Source: Eledone cirrhosa (lineage: Eukaryota). Taken from it: a stretch of 64,000 nucleotides of DNA. Position 1 is the first letter of the stretch. Every line of letters starts with the position of its first letter. Under the pieces are notes generated by a model. The model searched no databases. It saw only the letters and a list, made by a program, of their open reading frames with translations, and had not been told where the DNA came from. This document shows positions 1,661-61,089 of the stretch, piece by piece. The position numbers were made by a program, and so were the translations under genes. The stretch lies in contig OZ024766.1 in assembly GCA_964016885.1 (NCBI GenBank), forward strand, positions 4,154,001-4,218,000. Direction: 5' to 3'.

Positions 1661-1739
1661 ATATATATATATATATATACTATCCAGGAAGCTCCAACCA
1701 TTAAGGTTGTTTTGTTTTTTTCCGGGTATGTCAATATTT

Positions 1740-1840
1740 ATTTATAAAACAAATCTGTATTTTATCTGATGAAAGCGCACCATAATTTGCCTTGGTGGCC
1801 CTTGAAATATGTATAATAAAATAAATATGGTTTTATAAAT
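1740..1840 (+). ncRNA. Type I hammerhead ribozyme candidate, family A
   Basis: CUGAUGA 1766-1772, GAAA 1804-1807, AUA triplet 1813-1815. Stem I UAUUUUAU/AUAAAAUA plus an 11-bp distal stem; stem II AAG..CACCA/UGGUG..CUU. Confidence 0.75.
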
Positions 1841-1919
1841 ATAGTTTCCATTTATTAATATATTGTATATAATTCTATATATTTTTAATTGTGAAGCCTG
1901 CACAGTGTACTCTACATGT

Positions 1920-2110
1920 AAATAATTGTTTCTATTTTAGGCACAAGGCCAGCAATTACCCCAGTACATTACTGGTACTTTATTTTATCGACCCCCGTTA
2001 GGATGAAAGGCAAAGTTAACCTCGTCGGGATTTGAACTCAGATCATAAAGGGACGTAAATCTATGCTTCAAAGCATGGCGTCCGACCCTCTACCGATACT
2101 GCCACTCCAC
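1920..2110 (-). mobile_element. tRNA-derived SINE, family 2 (core GCCTTTCATCCT..GGGGTCGATAAAATAAAGTACCAG, Meta-SINE-like)
   Basis: Reverse complement of the copies at 25305, 34935 and 51790. Confidence 0.8.
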
Positions 2111-27108: not shown

Positions 27109-27391
27109 GTAAGTAAAAATTTCTTTATTTTTCACAAATATTTCAGCAAACAGCTGAGAAATATCACTCAGACATTTGCCAGATTTATAGCAAGGTGGAT
27201 AGGGTATTTACCTTGAACACTTCTATCAGTTGGGGCCTTGTAACATAGATGTGCCCCTTGATGTACGTTTGTGTTTTAACTTTTCAACACATAACATTTT
27301 GGTACCCTTGAAATATATATAATAAAATAAATATGGTTTCATAAATATAGTTTCCATTTATTTAATATCATTGTATACATATATATATATA

Positions 27392-27802
<411 letters not shown>

Positions 27803-27914
27803 AAAAAGTTTTATTTAAATTGTTGGGATACAACAAGCAAATATTTTTATAACTGATATAAAGCACTCAACAAATATTTGGAGTAAAAATACGATATTAA
27901 CAAATGGAAACTAT

Positions 27915-28019
27915 ATTTATAAAACCATATTTATTTCATTATACATATTTCAAGGACACCAAGTTAAATTATGGTGTGCTTTCATCAGATAAAATATAAT
28001 ATAGATCAGTTTTATAAAT
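27915..28019 (-). ncRNA. Type I hammerhead ribozyme candidate, family A
   Basis: Minus strand: UAUUUUAU CUGAUGA AAGCACACCA..UGGUGUCCUU GAAA UAUGUAUA AUGAAAUA, with the distal AUUUAUAAAAC/GUUUUAUAAAU stem. Confidence 0.75.
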
Positions 28020-28135
28020 AAATATTGACTACCCTTAAAAAATGCAACCATTACGGTTGGAAGCTCCCGGGTAGTAAATATATATATATATATGCGTGTG
28101 TGTCTGTAATGTGTCATTATCTCTCTGTGTTTCAG

Positions 28136-30674: not shown

Positions 30675-30744
30675 GTAGGTGTCGTTACGCAGTCTTTTGT
30701 CTTGTTGTTGTTGTTGTTGTTGTGTGAATGCGTGAACATGCCTC

Positions 30745-36858: not shown

Positions 36859-38640
36859 CTATCCAGTGTGAACATGTTTGTGAGTAGTGAGGTTACTCTT
36901 TCCAGTGAATGATTTACCACAGATATCACAGTGATATGGCTTCTCTCCAGTATGAATATGTATGTGTCTAGTTAGACTGCCAGATCCAGTGAATGATTTA
37001 CCACAGATATCACATTGATACGGCTTCTCTCCAGTGTGAACACGTTTGTGTACAGTTAGGTTTCTATTAAGAGTAAATGATTTACCACAGATATCACAGT
37101 GATATGGTCTTTCTCCTGTGTGAACACGTTTGTGTACAGTTAGGTTACTAATATCAGTAAATGATTTACCACAGATACCACATTGAAACGGCTTTTCTCC
37201 AGTATGGACACGTTTGTGTACAGTTAGGTTACTAATATCGGTAAATGATTTACCACAGATATCACAATGATATGGTTTCTCTCCAGTGTGAATGCATGTG
37301 TGTCTAGTTAAGCTACCATTTTTTGAGAATGATTTATCACAGATATTACAGTGGTATGGCTTTTCTCCTGTGTGAATATGTTTGTGTACAGTTAGGTTAT
37401 CATTCCCAGAGAATGATTTACCACAGATATCACAGTGGTATGGCTTCTCTCCTGTATGAACACGTTTGTGGGTAATGAGGTTACTCTTTACAGAGAATGA
37501 TTTACCACAGATATCACAGTGATATGGCCGCTCCCCTGTGTGGGTACGTTTGTGAATAGTTAATCTAGAACGCCCAGAAAATGATTTACCACATATTTCA
37601 CAGTGATATGGCTTCTCTCCTGTGTGAATACGTCTGTGTGTAATTAGTGTATCATTAGTAGAAAAGGATTTACAACAGATATCACATTGGTATGGCTTCT
37701 CTCCAGTGTGTACACGTTTGTGAGTTTTTAACATACCAGTCCGAGAGAATGATTTACCACAGATATCACAGTGATATGGCTTCTCTCCAGTATGAATAAG
37801 TATGTGTGTAGTTAGACTGCCAGATTCAGTGAATGATTTACCACAGATATCACAGTGATATGGCTTCTCTCCAGTATGAACATGTTTATGTGTAGTTAGA
37901 CTGCCAGATCCAGTGAATGATTTACCACAGATACCACATTGAAACGGCTTTTCTCCAGTATGGACACGTTTGTGTACAGTTAGGTTACTAATATCGGTAA
38001 ATGATTTACCACAGATATCACAGTGATATGGTTTCTCTCCAGTGTGAATGTGTTTGTGTCTAGTCAGGTTATCATTTTTTGAGAATGATTTACCACAGAT
38101 ATCACAGTGGTATGGCTTTTCTCCTGTGTGAACACGTTTGTGTACACTTAGGTTAACATTTTCAGAGAATGATTTACCACAGATATCACAGTGGTATGGC
38201 TTCTCTCCAGTGTGAACACGTTTGTGAATAGTTAGCTTATCATTAGCAAAGAATGATTTACCACAGATATCACAGTGATATGGCTTTTCCCTTGTGTGAA
38301 TATATTTGTGAATAGTTAATCTAGAACGCCCAGAATATGATTTACCACATATTTCACAGTGATATGGTTTCTCTCCTGTGTGAATACGTTTGTGTATAAT
38401 TAGTGTATCATTAGTAGAAAAGGATTTACAACAGATATCACATTGGTATGGTTTCTCTCCAGTGTGTACACGTTTGTGAGTTTTTAACATACCAGTCCGA
38501 GAGAATGATTTACCACAGATATCACAGTGATATGGCTTCTCTCCAGTATGAATATGCTTGTGAGTAGTGAGGTTACTCTTTACAGAGAATGACTCACCAC
38601 AGATGTTACAATGGTATGAGCATTTTCTTGTATTTGACAT
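36859..38640 (-). CDS. C2H2 zinc-finger protein, 593 aa, 21 tandem fingers, no effector domain
   Basis: Uninterrupted ORF of YHCDICGKSF..H..HTGEKP repeats. Confidence 0.93.
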   Translation of the reverse strand: MSNTRKCSYHCNICGESFSVKSNLTTHKHIHTGEKPYHCDICGKSFSRTGMLKTHKRVHTGEKPYQCDICCKSFSTNDTLIIHKRIHTGEKPYHCEICGKSYSGRSRLTIHKYIHTREKPYHCDICGKSFFANDKLTIHKRVHTGEKPYHCDICGKSFSENVNLSVHKRVHTGEKPYHCDICGKSFSKNDNLTRHKHIHTGEKPYHCDICGKSFTDISNLTVHKRVHTGEKPFQCGICGKSFTGSGSLTTHKHVHTGEKPYHCDICGKSFTESGSLTTHILIHTGEKPYHCDICGKSFSRTGMLKTHKRVHTGEKPYQCDICCKSFSTNDTLITHRRIHTGEKPYHCEICGKSFSGRSRLTIHKRTHTGERPYHCDICGKSFSVKSNLITHKRVHTGEKPYHCDICGKSFSGNDNLTVHKHIHTGEKPYHCNICDKSFSKNGSLTRHTCIHTGEKPYHCDICGKSFTDISNLTVHKRVHTGEKPFQCGICGKSFTDISNLTVHKRVHTGERPYHCDICGKSFTLNRNLTVHKRVHTGEKPYQCDICGKSFTGSGSLTRHIHIHTGEKPYHCDICGKSFTGKSNLTTHKHVHTG

Positions 38641-38665
38641 TTTCTCGAGACAAAAAAAGCCCAGC

Positions 38666-39161
38666 TTAACCCTTTAGCATTTAAACTGAACGTATCCGGT
38701 CAGAATTCTCTTATCTCTTTCTGTTCAAACCGGCCATAACTGGCTGCTCATACTTATGTTAAGTTATTGTTTTCAAAATAAATAATATCAAAATCTCATA
38801 GATTTGATATTATGTAAGATAAAGCCTTTACCATGAAAATACAATAGTATATATGTAAATGTTATGTGAGGTATTATGTGAGGTAAAGCCTTTACTGTGA
38901 AAATACAATAGTATATATAGAGTAATGTAAATGTTATGTGAGATATGATGTGAGGTAAAGCCTTTACTGTGAAAATACAATAGTATATATAGAGTAATGT
39001 AAATGTTATGTGAGATATTATGTGAGGTAAAGCCTCTACTGTGAAAATACAATAGTATATATAGAGTAATGTAAATGTTATGTGAGATATTATGTGAGGT
39101 AAAGCCTTTACCGTGAAAATACAATAGTAAATATACAGTAATGTAAATGCTAAAGGGTTAA
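38666..39161 (-). mobile_element. Complete piggyBac-type MITE with 72-bp units
   Basis: TTAA|CCCTTTAGCATTTA ... TAAATGCTAAAGGG|TTAA; perfect 14-bp TIRs. Confidence 0.88.
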
Positions 39162-42445: not shown

Positions 42446-42622
42446 AACGGAAACTAGTAAATATTAAAAGTATATATAACCAATAATTACCTCGTCTATA
42501 CCACGTGTTGATATATATTATATACACAGTACATATATATTTATACCGGAGTGTGTGTGTGTATATTTATATATCCAGCGAACCCCCAACCGTCAAGGTT
42601 GTTCTTCGGCGGGTATGTCAAC

Positions 42623-42721
42623 ATTTATAAAACAAATTTTGTATTTTATCTGATGAAAGCGCACCAAAATTTGCCTTGGTTGCCCATGAAATATATATAA
42701 AATAATTATGGCTTTATAAAT
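42623..42721 (+). ncRNA. Family A hammerhead copy, probably defective (3-nt deletion in stem III)
   Basis: CUGAUGA 42650-42656 and GAAA 42688-42691; only 5 nt between GAAA and stem I versus 8 in the intact copies. Confidence 0.55.
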
Positions 42722-42859
42722 ATAGTTTCCATTTATTAATATATTGAATACATATATATATATATATATGTTTATGTTATATATATGAGTGTGTCTGTGT
42801 GTATATATATTCTATATGTGTGTGAGTGTATTTATATTTATATATGAAATAAACTTCGT

Positions 42860-42915: not shown

Positions 42916-43646
42916 CATTAATTTGTGGAGTAGAACACCAGAAATAGTTTTCAGCACAGACACGTGTATCACTCGAGAGAATTAACTACATGTATGTAGG
43001 AACCTACACACACATTTATATATAAAATTAAAACAGTGAATTGATATAACTGAAGGTGTTTCTGAATGTATTAAATTATGTCAGGGACTTTTAATGTACG
43101 ACACCGGTGTCGTGTAGGGGGAGGAACATTGTCAACAACTCCACGTACCTGCTATCTTAATTATATTTTTTAATTAATCTAATTATATTTTATGTAGTAA
43201 TTATCTCATGTTAAGGTGAAAGTTAATATTCTGTAGATAACATAGAGTGAGCTACATGTTCCAGGGTAGGTGTTCCATCTCCTACATGATTAAATATTTC
43301 ATTTCATAAGAAACTACGCTACATCGTGAATTGGTTGCTCCACATTTTACAGGACAGTGAGAAATAGGTTTAAATCACCAACATCTGAACAATTAGCTTT
43401 CCTGGTCTTTCTTGACTTTACATTTGGACTTGAAATATAAAGTACGTATTATTTGTATTGTTAACACAGCAGATATTGTGTACTTTTCTACACTCCGTTG
43501 TAAACAATCCCGATTTATCAGGACACATATATATATATATACATAGACACAGCACAGCCAAATACACACAGCCATTTTCTTACCCTAATATCAGTCTTAA
43601 ACTGTTATATCTTTCCTGAACTATTAAGAATTATTCAAGACTTACT

Positions 43647-45404
43647 ATGGAGGACGTTAAACCCTTGGACATTTCTACCACACCTCTTTCTACCAATATA
43701 GATACAGTTACACACACATACAGTGGTGAGAAACCTTTACCTAGTGAAACATGTACTGAACAAGGATCATTACAGGCAAATATTCCTGAATATAGCTGTG
43801 AGATTTGTAGAAAAACTTTCTCATCAGAAGATGAATTATCCACACACAAGCACAAACATATTAAAGATAAACCGTTCCACTGTGAAATATGTGGGAAATC
43901 TTTTGATAAAAATTCTCAAATTGTGATCCATATACGTACTCACACTGGAGAGAAACCCTTCCACTGTGAAACATGTGGGAAATCTTTCGTTTGTAATAGC
44001 CATTTAACAAAACACAAAAGTACACACTCTAGAGTAAGACCATATACGTGTGAAGTATGTGGAAAAACTTTCGCCAATAAATCACATCTTGTTTCCCACT
44101 TACGTGTTCATACTGGAGAAAAACCATATCCCTGTGAAATATGTGGGAAGTCTTTTTTTACCAACGGAGATTTAAATAGACACAAAAGAACACACACTGG
44201 TGAGAAACCATATCCCTGTGAAATATGTGGGAAATCCTTTGTGGTTAACAGTGACTTAACAAAACACAAAAAAACACACACGAGAGAGAAAACATTCCAC
44301 TGTGAGATATGTGGGAAGTCTTTTGTTTCTAAGAGTCATCTCACAAACCATACTAGAAGTCACACTGGAGAAAAACCATTTCACTGTGAAATATGTGACA
44401 AATGTTTCGTATATAATAGCGACTTAGCCAAACACAAACGGATACACACAGGGGAGCGTCCTTTCCACTGTGAAATATGTGGGAGGTCGTTTGGTTCAAA
44501 TGGTGTTTTAACAATGCATAAACACAGGCACACGGGTGAGAAACCTTTCCATTGTCAGATTTGTGGCAAATCCTTTGTCTGTAATGGCGATTTAACTACC
44601 CACAAAAGAATACACACAGGGGAGAAACCATTTCATTGTGAAGTATGTGGGAAATCTTTTATTTCGAAGAGCGTTTTAACGACACATACAAGAATACATA
44701 CAGGAGAGAAACCTTTCCATTGCGAAATTTGCGGGAAATCTTTTGTTGCTAACTGTGATCTCACGAAACACATACGTAGACACACTGGAGAGAAACGCTA
44801 CCATTGCGAAACATGTGGGAAAGCATTTATTACTAACTCCCAGCTTGTCATACACAACCGCAGTCATACAGGAGAAAAACCTTTTCATTGTGAAATATGT
44901 GGGAAAGCTTTTATGCATAGAAGTGTCTTAACTGTGCATAAAAGAACACACACTGGAGAGAAGCCTTTTCTCTGCGAAATCTGTGATAAACCTTTCATCT
45001 GTAATAGCGATTTAAATCGTCATATGAGGACACACACTGGAGAGAAGCCATATCATTGTGAAATCTGCGGCAAGGCATTCTCTGATTATTCCAATCTCGT
45101 AGGGCACAGGCGTACACACACTGGAGAGAAACCATATCCTTGTGACATCTGTGGTAAAGCTTTCATGAACAATTCTCATCTTGTCGTCCACAAACGCAGC
45201 CACACTGGGGAGAAGCCCTATGACTGTACTGTCTGTGGGAAATCTTTTTTCGTCAACTCTAACCTTGTCGTGCACAATAGGATACATACAGGAGAAAAAC
45301 CTTTTGACTGTGATGTATGTGGGAAATCTTTTTACACTAACACCCTGTTGAATAGACACCAGCGGACACATGCTATAACCAAGCCCTCGAATTCTGGAAC
45401 ATAA
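43647..45404 (+). CDS. C2H2 zinc-finger protein A, 585 aa, 19 fingers
   Basis: Intact ORF; short N-terminus MEDVKPLDIS.., TGEKP linkers. Confidence 0.94.
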   Translation: MEDVKPLDISTTPLSTNIDTVTHTYSGEKPLPSETCTEQGSLQANIPEYSCEICRKTFSSEDELSTHKHKHIKDKPFHCEICGKSFDKNSQIVIHIRTHTGEKPFHCETCGKSFVCNSHLTKHKSTHSRVRPYTCEVCGKTFANKSHLVSHLRVHTGEKPYPCEICGKSFFTNGDLNRHKRTHTGEKPYPCEICGKSFVVNSDLTKHKKTHTREKTFHCEICGKSFVSKSHLTNHTRSHTGEKPFHCEICDKCFVYNSDLAKHKRIHTGERPFHCEICGRSFGSNGVLTMHKHRHTGEKPFHCQICGKSFVCNGDLTTHKRIHTGEKPFHCEVCGKSFISKSVLTTHTRIHTGEKPFHCEICGKSFVANCDLTKHIRRHTGEKRYHCETCGKAFITNSQLVIHNRSHTGEKPFHCEICGKAFMHRSVLTVHKRTHTGEKPFLCEICDKPFICNSDLNRHMRTHTGEKPYHCEICGKAFSDYSNLVGHRRTHTGEKPYPCDICGKAFMNNSHLVVHKRSHTGEKPYDCTVCGKSFFVNSNLVVHNRIHTGEKPFDCDVCGKSFYTNTLLNRHQRTHAITKPSNSGT

Positions 45405-50814: not shown

Positions 50815-50850
50815 TCTTAACGTTTCGGACGCTAGTCCTTCCTCAGAAGA
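50815..50850 (-). ncRNA. Minimal hammerhead-like motif
   Basis: UCUU CUGAGGA A GGAC-UAGC-GUCC GAAA CGUU AAGA; palindromic AACGUU in place of stem III. Confidence 0.55.
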
Positions 50851-51975: not shown

Positions 51976-53465
51976 TTATTTCTCCTCGTTTCGGGGCACT
52001 TTTTTTTCATGGTACTCCCTCCCCATTTATATTTTTTAGAGGTTGGCACGTCTGGAGAGATGTGTAGATCTGCGAAACACCGATGGCCTTTTTCTACAAC
52101 TGTAAAACATACAGGACACTGCGGGATAAAACACGAGAAAGATGGTTGGATAACACCCATGAGCTCGACTGTTGTCACTTGCGGATCCAGCCGGATCAGT
52201 TGGAAATCGTTGCATCTGACAGGGTCCGCTGGAAGGAAAGTTTGAGGACTCTGTCCCCACGACCCTCTCAGGAAGAAGAAGCGACTCTCTGATCTTCGAG
52301 CTAGACACTCTACCGAGTAAGGTTACTCCACAGACCCCGGAGTCTAATAACGGAAACTAGTAAAAGATATTTAAAAGTCTATAAAATGTATATAAAACAA
52401 ATAATTACCTCGTCTAATCAGGCGTGTTGATATATATTATATACACAGTAAATATATATATATATATTTATACAGGTGCGTGTGTGTATATTTATATAGT
52501 ATGTGTGTGTATATATATATATATATATTATGTGTGTGTGTGTATATATATTATATATGTGTGTGTGTATGTGTGTATGTTATATTTATATGTGTATGTG
52601 TGTATGTTATATTTATATATATATATGTATGTGTGTGTGTGTGTTTTATATTTATATATAAGAAATATACTTCCGGGTCGTGGAACATCCGTGTCACTTA
52701 CCGGAGGTAGACGTAAAGATCCGGTGGGACATGCGCAATACGAACCAATTAATTTATGGAGTACAACCAGAAGTAGCCTTCATCACAGACACCTGTATCA
52801 TTCTATATAACTAACTACATGGATGTAAGAATCTACACACATATTTACAATTGACACAATGTGTGGAAACAACTGAAGGTCTTTGTGAATGTATTAAATT
52901 ATGTCCAGGGACTTTTAACGTTTGACACCGGTGATCATTCAACTGGAAACATTCTCCACGACACCGTTTACTCGCCATCTTGATTATAACGTTAATTAAT
53001 CTAATTAGATCTTGTATAGCAATTATCTCATGTTAAGGGGAAAGTTAATATTCTGTAGATAACATAGAGTGAGCTACATGTTCCAGAGTAGGTGTTCCAT
53101 CTCCTACATGATTAAATATTTCATTTCATGAGAAACTACGCTACATCGTGAATTGGTTGCTCCACATTTTACAGACAGTGAGAAATAGGTTTAAATCACC
53201 AACATCTGAACAATTAGCTTTCCTGGTCTTTCTTGACTTTACACTTGGACTTGAAATATAAAGTACGTATTATTTGTATTGTTAACACAGCAGATATTGT
53301 GTACTTTTCTACACTCCATGGTGAACAATCCGGGTTTATTAGAAGACAAAGACACATATATGTATATATATATACATAGACACAGCACAGCCATTTTCTT
53401 AACCCAACATCAGTCTTAAACTATAAAATCTATTCTGAACTTTTAATAATTCTTCAAGAATTACT

Positions 53466-55655
53466 ATGGAGGACGTTAAACCCTTGGACATTTCTAACAC
53501 ACCTGTTTCTACCAACATGGATACAGTTACACAGGAATACTGTGATGAGAAACCTTTGGACATTTCTAACACACCTGTTTCTACCAACATGGATACAGTT
53601 ACACAGGAATACTGTGATGAGAAACCTTTGGACATTTCTAACACACCTGTTTCTACCAACATGGATACAGTTACACAGGAATACTGTGATGTGAAACCCT
53701 TGGACATTTTTAACACACCTGTTTCTACCAACATGGATACAGTTACACAGGAATACTGTGATGTGAAACCCTTGGACATTTTTAACACACCTGTTTCTAC
53801 CAACATGGATACAGTTACACAGGAATACTGTGATGTGAAACCCTTGGACATTTTTAACACACCTGTTTCTACCAATATGGATACAGTTACACAGGTATAC
53901 TGTGACGTGAAACCTTTACTTAGTGAAACATGTGCCGAACAAGGATCATTACAGGCAAATATTCCTGAATATAGCTGTGATGTTTGTTGGCAAACTTTCC
54001 CATCAGAAGATGAATTATCCACTCACAAACAAATACATACTAAAGATAAACCCTTTCATTGCCAAATATGTGGGAAATCTTTTGATAAAAATTCTCAAAT
54101 TGTCATCCACATACGTACTCACACTGGAGAGAAACCCTTCAGCTGTGAAATATGTGGGAAATCTTTCGTTTGTAATAGCTATTTAACTGTACACAAAAGA
54201 ACACACACTGGTACGAAGCCATATTCCTGTGAAATTTGTGGGAAATCCTTTGTAGCTAACAGTGACTTAACAAAACACAAAAAAACACACACGAGAGAGA
54301 AAACATTCCACTGTGAGATATGTGGGAAGTCCTTTATTTCTAAGAGCTTATTGACAAGCCATATTAGAAGTCACACCGGTGAAAAGCCATTTCACTGTGA
54401 AATATGTGGCAAATGTTTCCATCATAATTGTGACTTGGCTAAACACAGAAGGATACACACAGGGGAGCGTCCTTACCACTGTGAAATATGTGGGAGGTCG
54501 TTTCGTTTGAAAGGTGTTTTAACAATGCATAAACACAGGCATACAGGTGAGAAACCTTTCCATTGTCAGATATGTGGCAAATCCTTTGTCTGTAATGGCG
54601 ATTTAACTACCCACAAAAGAATACATACAGGGGAGAAACGGTTCCATTGTGAAATATGTGGGAAATCATTTATTTCGAAGGGTGATTTAACGACACATAC
54701 AAGAATACATACAGGAGAGAGACCTTTCCATTGCGAAATTTGCGGGAAATCGTTTGCAGCTAACTGTGATCTCACGAAACACATACGTAGACACACTGGA
54801 GAGAAACGCTACCATTGCGAAATATGTGGGAAAGCTTTTATTACTAACTCCCAGCTTGTCATACACAACCGCAGTCATACAGGAGAAAAACCTTTCCATT
54901 GTGAAACATGTGAGAAAGCTTTTATTACCAACTCTCAGCTTGCCATACACACCCGCAGTCACACAGGAGAAAAACACTTTCACTGTGAAACATGTAGGAA
55001 ATCTTTTATTACTAACTCCCAGCTTCTTATACACAACCGCAGCCATACAGGAGACAAGTCTTATGATTGTGAAACATGTGGCAAATCGTTTATTGCCAAC
55101 TCCCAGCTTGAGATACACAATCGTGGTCATGCAGCAGGAAATTGTTTTGATTGCGATACATGTGGGAAATCTTTTTTAACCAACTCCCAGTTTGTCATAC
55201 ACACTCGAACACACACAGGAGAAAAGTCTTTTCAATGTGAAATCTGTGATAAACCTTTCAAAACTAAAAGTGATTTAAATCGTCATATGAGGATACACAC
55301 AGGAGAAAAGCCATATCATTGTGAAATCTGCGGCAAAGCATTCTCTGACTATTCCAATCTTATAGGGCACAGGCGTACACATACCGGAGAGAAACCATAT
55401 CCTTGTGACATCTGTGGCAAAGCTTTCATGAACAATTCTCATCTTGTGGTCCACAAACGCAGCCACACTGGGGAGAAGCCTTATGACTGTACTGTCTGTG
55501 GGAAATCTTTTTTCGTCAAATCTAACCTTGTCGTTCACAATAGGATACATACAGGAGAAAAACCTTTTGACTGTGATGTATGTGGGAAATCTTTTTACAC
55601 TAACACCCTGGTGAATAAGCACAAGAGGATGCATTACAAATCTAAATCACGTTGA
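53466..55655 (+). CDS. C2H2 zinc-finger protein B, 729 aa, 20 fingers, six 24-aa N-terminal repeats
   Basis: Intact ORF; clear paralog of 43647-45404. Confidence 0.94.
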   Translation: MEDVKPLDISNTPVSTNMDTVTQEYCDEKPLDISNTPVSTNMDTVTQEYCDEKPLDISNTPVSTNMDTVTQEYCDVKPLDIFNTPVSTNMDTVTQEYCDVKPLDIFNTPVSTNMDTVTQEYCDVKPLDIFNTPVSTNMDTVTQVYCDVKPLLSETCAEQGSLQANIPEYSCDVCWQTFPSEDELSTHKQIHTKDKPFHCQICGKSFDKNSQIVIHIRTHTGEKPFSCEICGKSFVCNSYLTVHKRTHTGTKPYSCEICGKSFVANSDLTKHKKTHTREKTFHCEICGKSFISKSLLTSHIRSHTGEKPFHCEICGKCFHHNCDLAKHRRIHTGERPYHCEICGRSFRLKGVLTMHKHRHTGEKPFHCQICGKSFVCNGDLTTHKRIHTGEKRFHCEICGKSFISKGDLTTHTRIHTGERPFHCEICGKSFAANCDLTKHIRRHTGEKRYHCEICGKAFITNSQLVIHNRSHTGEKPFHCETCEKAFITNSQLAIHTRSHTGEKHFHCETCRKSFITNSQLLIHNRSHTGDKSYDCETCGKSFIANSQLEIHNRGHAAGNCFDCDTCGKSFLTNSQFVIHTRTHTGEKSFQCEICDKPFKTKSDLNRHMRIHTGEKPYHCEICGKAFSDYSNLIGHRRTHTGEKPYPCDICGKAFMNNSHLVVHKRSHTGEKPYDCTVCGKSFFVKSNLVVHNRIHTGEKPFDCDVCGKSFYTNTLVNKHKRMHYKSKSR

Positions 55656-60485: not shown

Positions 60486-61000
60486 CAATGAAAATGTTGA
60501 GAGAATTCTAGCCGGATTAAATGCTAAAGGGCTAATTCAGTGCCTGGTCCAAGTTGTGAGGCAGGCTTGTTTATGCCAGACAAAATCCTACTGGTATGTA
60601 ATCAATCCCACGATGGTAAACAACATCCCTCATCAGTGAAAGGACCTCTGTACTCTATTACATCATAAAGCGCTCAACTGGATAAGGAGCTATTCATCAT
60701 TTCATCATCATCATCATCATTTTACGTCCGCTTTTCCCCTGCTTGCAAGAGTGGGACGGGAACTGATTCCAGGATGTATGGTAGATTTTTTGAGACTTAT
60801 TTTAGGAAGAGAGTATCATCTTTGATGCCAGGAAATACGGTATATATATATATATATATAAGGGTTAAAATACTGGAGCGTGTTGGAGTTAAACACTTAT
60901 ATATTTTTACCCATAATCTTGCAATACTTTAGTGTATGTACACTCCATATTCTTCGGAGTTTCCGGCTTGTATCGGCCGATAATACTTCTTGTTGTTTTA

Positions 61001-61046
61001 ATTGCCCTGATGAGTCCTTAATAGGATGAAACATTGTTGGCTAATA
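61001..61046 (+). ncRNA. Minimal type I hammerhead candidate, family C
   Basis: AUUGCC CUGAUGA GUCCU-UAAU-AGGAU GAAA CAUUG UU GGCUAAU, overlapping AAUAAA. Confidence 0.7.
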
Positions 61047-61089
61047 AAGACTTTTGATGTATTGAAGGCTTCTTTGTTTTACTTTCTTA

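Follow-up and report, generated by a model that had tools for sequence, protein, structure and literature searches.

A dispersed hammerhead repeat in Eledone cirrhosa and its link to a Hydra-clade Penelope-like element

Described systems and the copies in the window

Hammerhead ribozymes in Penelope-like elements (PLEs), the Hydra clade of PLEs and the presence of this clade in octopus are already in print, and one passage of PMC8967140 notes Penelope expansions in octopus. In the relevant passages of Craig et al. (2021, PMC8557442), the Hydra clade is defined by an RWK motif, a change of DKG to DKT, a CxCX5C linker, CxxC and CxH motifs and the lack of CCHH; its members are said there to target (TA)n, to carry hammerheads and to be generally shorter than 3 kb, the length being given as a tendency and not as diagnostic. 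For PAc, the Poseidon element of Anolis carolinensis (Frangieh et al. 2024), the passages compared in PMC11167929 report that in vitro two internal RT starts define the tail and both strands are cut, and describe the hammerhead as protein-assisted and dispensable for insertion. A third set of relatives, the metazoan non-LTR retrozymes, have a type I hammerhead, low GC, small units and a link to pLTRs in common with the repeat studied here, by the parts of PMC7229834 (Cervera and de la Pena 2020) and the Li et al. 2026 preprint that describe them.

The window analysed here is a 64-kb stretch of the Eledone cirrhosa genome. The original prediction had placed four copies of a short hammerhead repeat in it, and all four exist, but the minus-strand copy runs from 28075 to 27793 and has a 3' tail of about 94 bp that had been missed. 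Positions within the repeat are numbered from the A of CC/ACT in the genomic locus L079, where the predicted cut falls after +133 and the AUG at +327. Copy 1 (1679..1870, + strand) is a solo pLTR unit that runs from +1 to a short 3' end, sits in (TA)n and is 93-95% identical to the L079 pLTR. It opens with ACTATCC (1679..1685, +), the preferred 5' end and putative transcription start (template context CC/ACT), which by eye and in folds also forms the 5' strand of a predicted helix with GGTAYGT. The 3' strand of this helix lies in a conserved, splice-donor-like motif, GGTAYGTC (1725..1732, +), whose column identity of 0.88 compares with 0.67 in the 5' domain; a pairing of this motif with the 5' strand of stem II, a candidate off-switch, is visible by eye and appears in some folds. 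The extended type I hammerhead follows at 1740..1840 (+), with a predicted cut after 1815, and consists of a distal stem I, an internal loop, an 8-bp stem I, the core, a bulged stem II and a palindromic stem III. The core proposed for this copy is present in the sequence (CUGAUGA 1766-1772, GAAA 1804-1807, AUA 1813-1815), as are the 8-bp stem I (1758-65/1816-23), the 2-bp stem III and the 11-bp distal stem I (1740-50/1830-40), the last of which can be extended to 12 bp.

Copy 2 (27300..27384, +) is a 5'-truncated pLTR fragment of another subfamily that begins in the 3' half of stem II and lacks CUGAUGA. Copy 3 (27793..28075, −) is a solo pLTR, also of another subfamily, that reaches from +1 to a long 3' end including the tail, and its core is intact at 27988-27982. 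Copy 4 (42572..42757, +) is a solo pLTR from +2, and because 3 nt are deleted at the cleavage triplet and stem II contains an A-A mismatch, it is likely defective or inactive. Only copies 1 and 3 among the four thus keep an intact core and triplet. Single-sequence folding gives z scores of −1.64, −3.13 and −1.34 for the three full copies, two of which are unremarkable. Rfam found no hammerhead at E<=1 on any of the four copies, nor a match to the pLTR hammerhead at the gathering score in five genomic loci, and the check by Rfam Hammerhead_1 that had been proposed therefore misses this ribozyme in both settings. No piece of the ORF described below was found within the 64-kb window.

The window also holds a tandem C2H2 zinc-finger ORF cluster (36859-38673, −; 43620-45404, +; 53439-55655, +; from about 63750, +) and an open frame ending at 30727 (+) with a short stretch that we take to be Sm/LSm-like. 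Two abundant SINE-like repeats are present as well: one at 1501-1660 (−) and about ten other places, with a tRNA-like head (Rfam tRNA, 24-31 bits), which flanks copies 1 and 3, and another family at 1920-2100 (+). The zinc-finger cluster and the tRNA-like SINEs are both in keeping with a cephalopod source.

The parent element and its protein

The best genomic matches to the repeat share upstream sequence of varying length, and a walk upstream from genomic copies leads into an AT-rich UTR and then into an ORF ending in a Cys-rich linker and a GIY-YIG domain. A protein search of the genome listed 106 matches, many of them in open frames of 743-751 aa. We examined 25 loci, 20 from the protein-match list and five found earlier: the hammerhead family adjoins the ORF in nearly all of them (L095 is without it), and in seven (L079, L087, L094, L097, L098, L100 and L101) pLTRs in direct orientation flank the ORF region on both sides. 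Locus L079 presents the whole partial tandem, in the order inverted tail, truncated UTR, pLTR, tail, ORF (with breaks), UTR, pLTR and (TA)n. In all five loci tested for each, the unit measures 3856-4367 bp and the paired pLTRs are 97.3-100% alike; the 3' UTR is AT-rich and 1.3-1.8 kb long. The formation of hammerhead-bearing pLTRs by partial tandems is that of PLEs, and the position of the copies in (TA)n is that of Hydra-clade insertions.

The single ORF encodes a TERT-related RT with a C-terminal GIY-YIG domain carrying R/H/E/N, the arrangement of an EN+ PLE. The protein P0001 bears RWR at 45, DKT at 126, YRDD at 360, CNCRDRSKC at 609, IYNC..YVG at 629-645, CDLC at 707 and CRH at 734; it thus has the CxCX5C linker and the CxxC and CxH motifs around E and N, and lacks CCHH. 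Among public proteins, 38 homologs show 31-38% identity, and the 26 that were aligned share the P0001 motifs, with RWK or RWR at the first. The predicted model of P0001 has a pLDDT of 84, and the three best PDB fold matches to it are all TERT. Pfam reported no RT or GIY-YIG domain in either of two Hydra ORFs tested, and a sequence search of PDB with the Hydra ORF gave no match. Placement in the Hydra clade rests on the motifs, the reference proteins in the supplement of Craig et al. having been compared by eye; the short length of the clade (<3 kb) is not found in any of the five loci measured. Neptune/Nematis, considered on account of the Cys-rich linker, is ruled out by DKT, RWR and the absence of CCHH. 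A PLE of another clade adjoins a Hydra copy at L091:6768-8423 (−), where a 552-aa ORF has RVT_1 and GIY-YIG Pfam matches.

Between the tail and the AUG, the leader of L079 contains an inverted repeat (ATCAGTTATAA / TTATAACTGAT) with inner hairpins, at about +230 to +325, that is conserved across subfamilies and is a candidate protein-binding or RT-start structure. A 5' UTR intron lies in or near the pLTR in Penelope and Chlamys-3. In the Eledone element the donor-like GGTAYGT is conserved, no conserved acceptor was found at +290, and two spliced-junction patterns gave no match; this search is uninformative, because PLE copies retain introns.

These results bear on the kind of family to which the repeat belongs. 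That the family is mobile and bears a ribozyme, a type I hammerhead, had been claimed correctly, and PLEs were among the relatives that had been named; the further claim that the family is non-coding and retrozyme-like fails, for the repeat runs on without a break into a long AT-rich 3' UTR and an RT-EN ORF, and in full-length loci a copy of it stands at either side of that ORF. The type I hammerhead with extended stem I, the low GC and the dispersed copies of about 200-300 bp would suit a stand-alone, non-coding retrozyme making small circular RNAs. However, retrozymes are non-coding units in head-to-tail tandem in the sections of PMC7229834 and 10.64898/2026.07.22.740005 that treat them, and the former defines them as tandem repeats, whereas the Eledone copies are single or inverted and come from a coding element. 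The continuity with UTR and ORF, together with copy ends that lie off the cut site and the lack of tandem arrays in 30 loci, makes this reading extremely improbable; head-to-tail hammerhead units were not found in those 30 loci, an ORF-bearing form exists, and a non-LTR retrozyme was rejected. It is thus almost certain that the short repeat is the hammerhead-bearing pLTR of a Hydra-clade PLE.

With the Hydra clade the Eledone element shares a single ORF of RT plus C-terminal GIY-YIG, the RWK-type, DKT, CxCX5C, CxxC and CxH motifs, the lack of CCHH and insertion at (TA)n, as well as a hammerhead near the 3' end whose stem III is palindromic, in which H17 is frequently A and stem II often lacks a G-C at its base. 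It differs in several respects: Hydra elements are mostly under 3 kb with a tail of 30-40 bp, whereas the Eledone element is 3.9-4.4 kb with a tail of about 94 nt, an AT-rich 3' UTR of 1.3-1.8 kb, an 8-bp stem I with a distal stem, a long bulged stem II and at least 40,796 intact-core hammerhead copies. Hydra-1_Obim of Octopus bimaculoides (2507 bp) has another hammerhead, and its RT and linker are, by eye, visibly different in sequence. As far as the literature searched goes, the Eledone family, its longer unit, the 94-nt tail, the extended hammerhead, the abundance and the junction record of a likely capped start described below are new; no description of the family or of a cap-G peak at a pLTR was found in it, and Repbase, where a prior description is possible, lay outside that search.

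The hammerhead across genomic copies

In its own 3.0-Gb genome, an exact pattern for the intact core has 40,796 matches (20,513 on the + strand and 20,283 on the − strand; the reversed control gave none), with 2,109 for the stem II variant of copy 1 alone. Up to 120,000 hammerheads are given for axolotl in a passage of PMC7229834. A pattern that leaves the core free has 31,303 matches, of which the first 100 listed were counted by eye: the core is intact in 92, and the eight breaks are scattered. Position N7 is non-T in 33 of these first 100 and is the only core position to vary freely. N7 is the one free position of the hammerhead core. The 3' flank is nearly as conserved as the core. In alignment A3 the invariance of the core is by construction, because its rows were chosen with an intact core.

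The elements of a type I hammerhead are all present, namely the core (CUGANGA, GAAA, UH) and three helices; pair 10.1-11.1 is A-U and not the usual G-C. Across 20 hand-picked variants, 95.9% of the cells in the stems pair, compared with 42-52% in slid controls. Stem I is fully paired with one-sided changes only, and in stem II three pairs change on both sides, so covariation, which had been put forward as a check, appears at those three pairs; however, two-sided changes occur in only three of 28 pairs, 328 of 500 shuffles reach that count, and the rows are related. RNAalifold on A3 recovers stem II but replaces stem I by another hairpin on the 3' side. The proposed complement between loop II and stem I (CAAAU/AUUUG) is found in only two of the 20 aligned variants and is not established; cognate runs between loop II and stem I average 4.1 against 3.7 for non-cognate ones (permutation p = 0.016, from hand-picked, related rows). 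Stem III and its loop are palindromic in the main variants (ATATATAT, ATATGTAT), a design that a passage of Cervera and de la Pena (PMC4209133) describes as working as a dimer and as having low activity in vitro. The fold itself, that of a type I hammerhead, is real and repeated. Judged from the sequence, the hammerhead is likely kept by selection; we think it more likely than not that the ribozyme is active in vivo.

Several other hammerheads were met. A second minimal one lies in the window at 60835-61085 (+), with its core at 61008 and 24.2 bits to Rfam Hammerhead_1 (gathering score 34); it has a palindromic stem III and stands at the 3' end of a repeat that is young, 5'-truncated and terminated by (TA)n, with 40 scored matches at 98-100% among 1645 candidates. 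This repeat is probably another PLE pLTR. Minimal hammerhead motifs of other repeat families occur in the window at 50846 (−) and 17922 (−), and the 50846 type recurs in L089 and L091. A related hammerhead family with ATGCGCAT as palindromic stem III, a longer stem II and no GGTAYGTC is found at L012:774 (−), L089:1430, L092:7495, L151:2508 (−) and L123:1988 (−). Directly after the Hydra element in L097 (139-2075, −), five units follow one another head to tail, each about 480 bp long and bearing a minimal hammerhead (CTAG palindrome); this unit occurs in single copy in L079 and L083, and the array resembles a true tandem retrozyme more closely than the pLTR family of the window does. In L008 a pLTR copy is joined upstream to what is presumably histone H3 gene 3'-end-like sequence.

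Copy ends, template and meaning

The ends of 30 unbiased loci, taken in genome order by the stem II pattern, were tallied by eye. Their 3' ends cluster at about +190 and +284, which places them some 57 and 151 nt beyond the predicted cut. Because the copies extend past the cut site to these ends, the RNA that was copied was continuous across it. An inverted partner is present in at least 20 of the 29 distinct loci (by eye), and all 12 fully resolved inverted pairs consist of one short and one tail end, eight other pairs being interrupted or off the locus. This combination of 5' truncation, an inverted 5'-truncated partner and a tail at one end is that of PLEs. At the other side, 12 of the 30 copies have 5' ends at 0..+4, at one initiator-like A, and 10 extend more than 20 nt upstream into UTR or ORF; in the window, the three full copies likewise have their start at about +1. 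The flanks of short copies are unrelated to the upstream sequence of the element, and no head-to-tail array of the pLTR unit occurs in the 30 loci.

Genome-wide, (TA)n abuts +1 at 74 junctions, compared with none at an internal control (one position) in the same CC/A context, and a second subfamily has 73 such junctions. The base before +1 in the 74 junctions is T in 43, G in 18, A in 7 and C in 6, the plain T being uninformative. In the TATATATAT+N phase it is G in 13 of 22 (background 5.9%, p = 3e-11); in the second subfamily the excess of G is less marked (9 of 73, including two pairs that look like duplicated loci). Because neither target nor template contains this G, it can be read as the signature of a copied cap, in the way that passages of PMC9341517 and PMC2831318 read an untemplated 5' G in L1. 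One might explain the peak otherwise, as an RT stop at a structure or as microhomology joining to (TA)n with the G added independently of a cap, since ACTAT resembles the target and the conserved helix begins exactly at +1. Microhomology may indeed add to the peak for the first of these reasons. However, RT would first reach the 3' strand of the helix (about +47), the peak persists where junctions are inverted or non-TA, most of the added bases are G and the control position gave nothing, so that this explanation appears very unlikely. Taken as the start of a capped RNA, which these junctions make probable, +1 with its extra G, together with 3' ends past the cut, suggests that the unit of about 190 bp is probably a cDNA of the capped leader read through an uncleaved hammerhead.

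The hammerhead could also look uncut if the template were a unit-length RNA circle that the hammerhead had produced by cleaving and ligating, a model described in the part of PMC4209133 (Cervera and de la Pena 2014) that bears on it. The partial tandems with near-identical pLTRs sharing private changes, as in L079, would agree with such a template. A circle, however, has no 5' end and cannot give a +1 peak with an extra G, and the model would apply to the long copies only; we regard it as quite unlikely.

We consider it likely that the copies of about 190 and 284 bp are cDNAs from two internal RT starts, running through an uncut hammerhead to the capped 5' end, and represent the pLTR of the Hydra PLE. 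Transcription by Pol II would start at the A of CC/ACT inside the pLTR, where a TSS within the pLTR is also placed for Penelope and Chlamys-3 in a passage of PMC8557442, and the RNA would carry, in order, the leader, the hammerhead (cut at +133), the tail (+190 to +284), the AUG (+327), the ORF, the 3' UTR and a second pLTR. The protein may cut both (TA)n strands, one cDNA being primed at about +190 and the other at +284, and these two priming sites would yield head-to-head inverted pairs with the tail at one end only. RT starts in the upstream pLTR would run off the cap and leave solo units such as the window copies, and those in the downstream pLTR would leave 5'-truncated to full-length copies. 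The hammerhead itself, with a stem III of 2 bp whose palindrome would serve dimer pairing, is likely slow when alone and may cut only as a dimer or with the help of protein, its likeliest role being the processing of long read-through or tandem transcripts; the RNA that it cuts would not be the template of the observed copies. By the passages compared in PMC11167929, PAc shares the two internal RT starts that define the tail, the AT-rich targets and the use of uncut RNA as template. It belongs to another clade, its hammerhead overlaps the start codon and its RT starts lie 111-118 nt inside the ORF, whereas both RT sites of the Eledone element would lie in the 5' leader; a cap-G peak does not appear in those passages.

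A further reading would add to this mechanism and is compatible with it: the solo pLTRs may be an active, non-autonomous, SINE-like Pol II hammerhead family with its own internal promoter, copied in trans by the Hydra protein. The unit from 0 to 284 contains the putative start and both RT start sites, the start at about +1 recurs in the three full window copies and in 12 of the 30 unbiased copies, the word depth of the pLTR in public contigs of unknown kind is roughly 10- to 100-fold that of the ORF (which is not a copy number), and retrozymes are argued to derive from pLTRs in a section of 10.64898/2026.07.22.740005. However, stem II variants seen in solo copies are found in ORF-linked ones too (L103, L085), and run-off from full-length RNA accounts for the same ends, which leaves this reading tentative and somewhat doubtful. 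In its strongest form, in which a capped Hydra PLE leader has become a self-propagating Pol II hammerhead SINE whose 190/284-nt units are copied in trans to the cap, we think it unlikely. If it were true, tens of thousands of palindromic-stem hammerheads could cut host transcripts as dimers, a transition from PLE to retrozyme would be in progress, and the ribozyme would act as a switch between copying the leader RNA and destroying it.

For annotation, these results warn that a dispersed 'retrozyme monomer' may turn out to be a solo pLTR, and that the Hydra family of Eledone escapes both Rfam and Pfam. The role of the hammerhead in PLEs is an open question in the passages of PMC8557442 and PMC11167929 that discuss it. 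The Eledone junctions preserve a record of where the RNA presumably starts, of the two sites at which RT begins and of a ribozyme left uncut; they would extend the in vitro model of internal initiation to a second clade, and they supply exact constructs for testing the timing of hammerhead cleavage. The Hydra lineage in the Eledone genome is young and diversified, with open ORFs and more than 40,000 intact cores.
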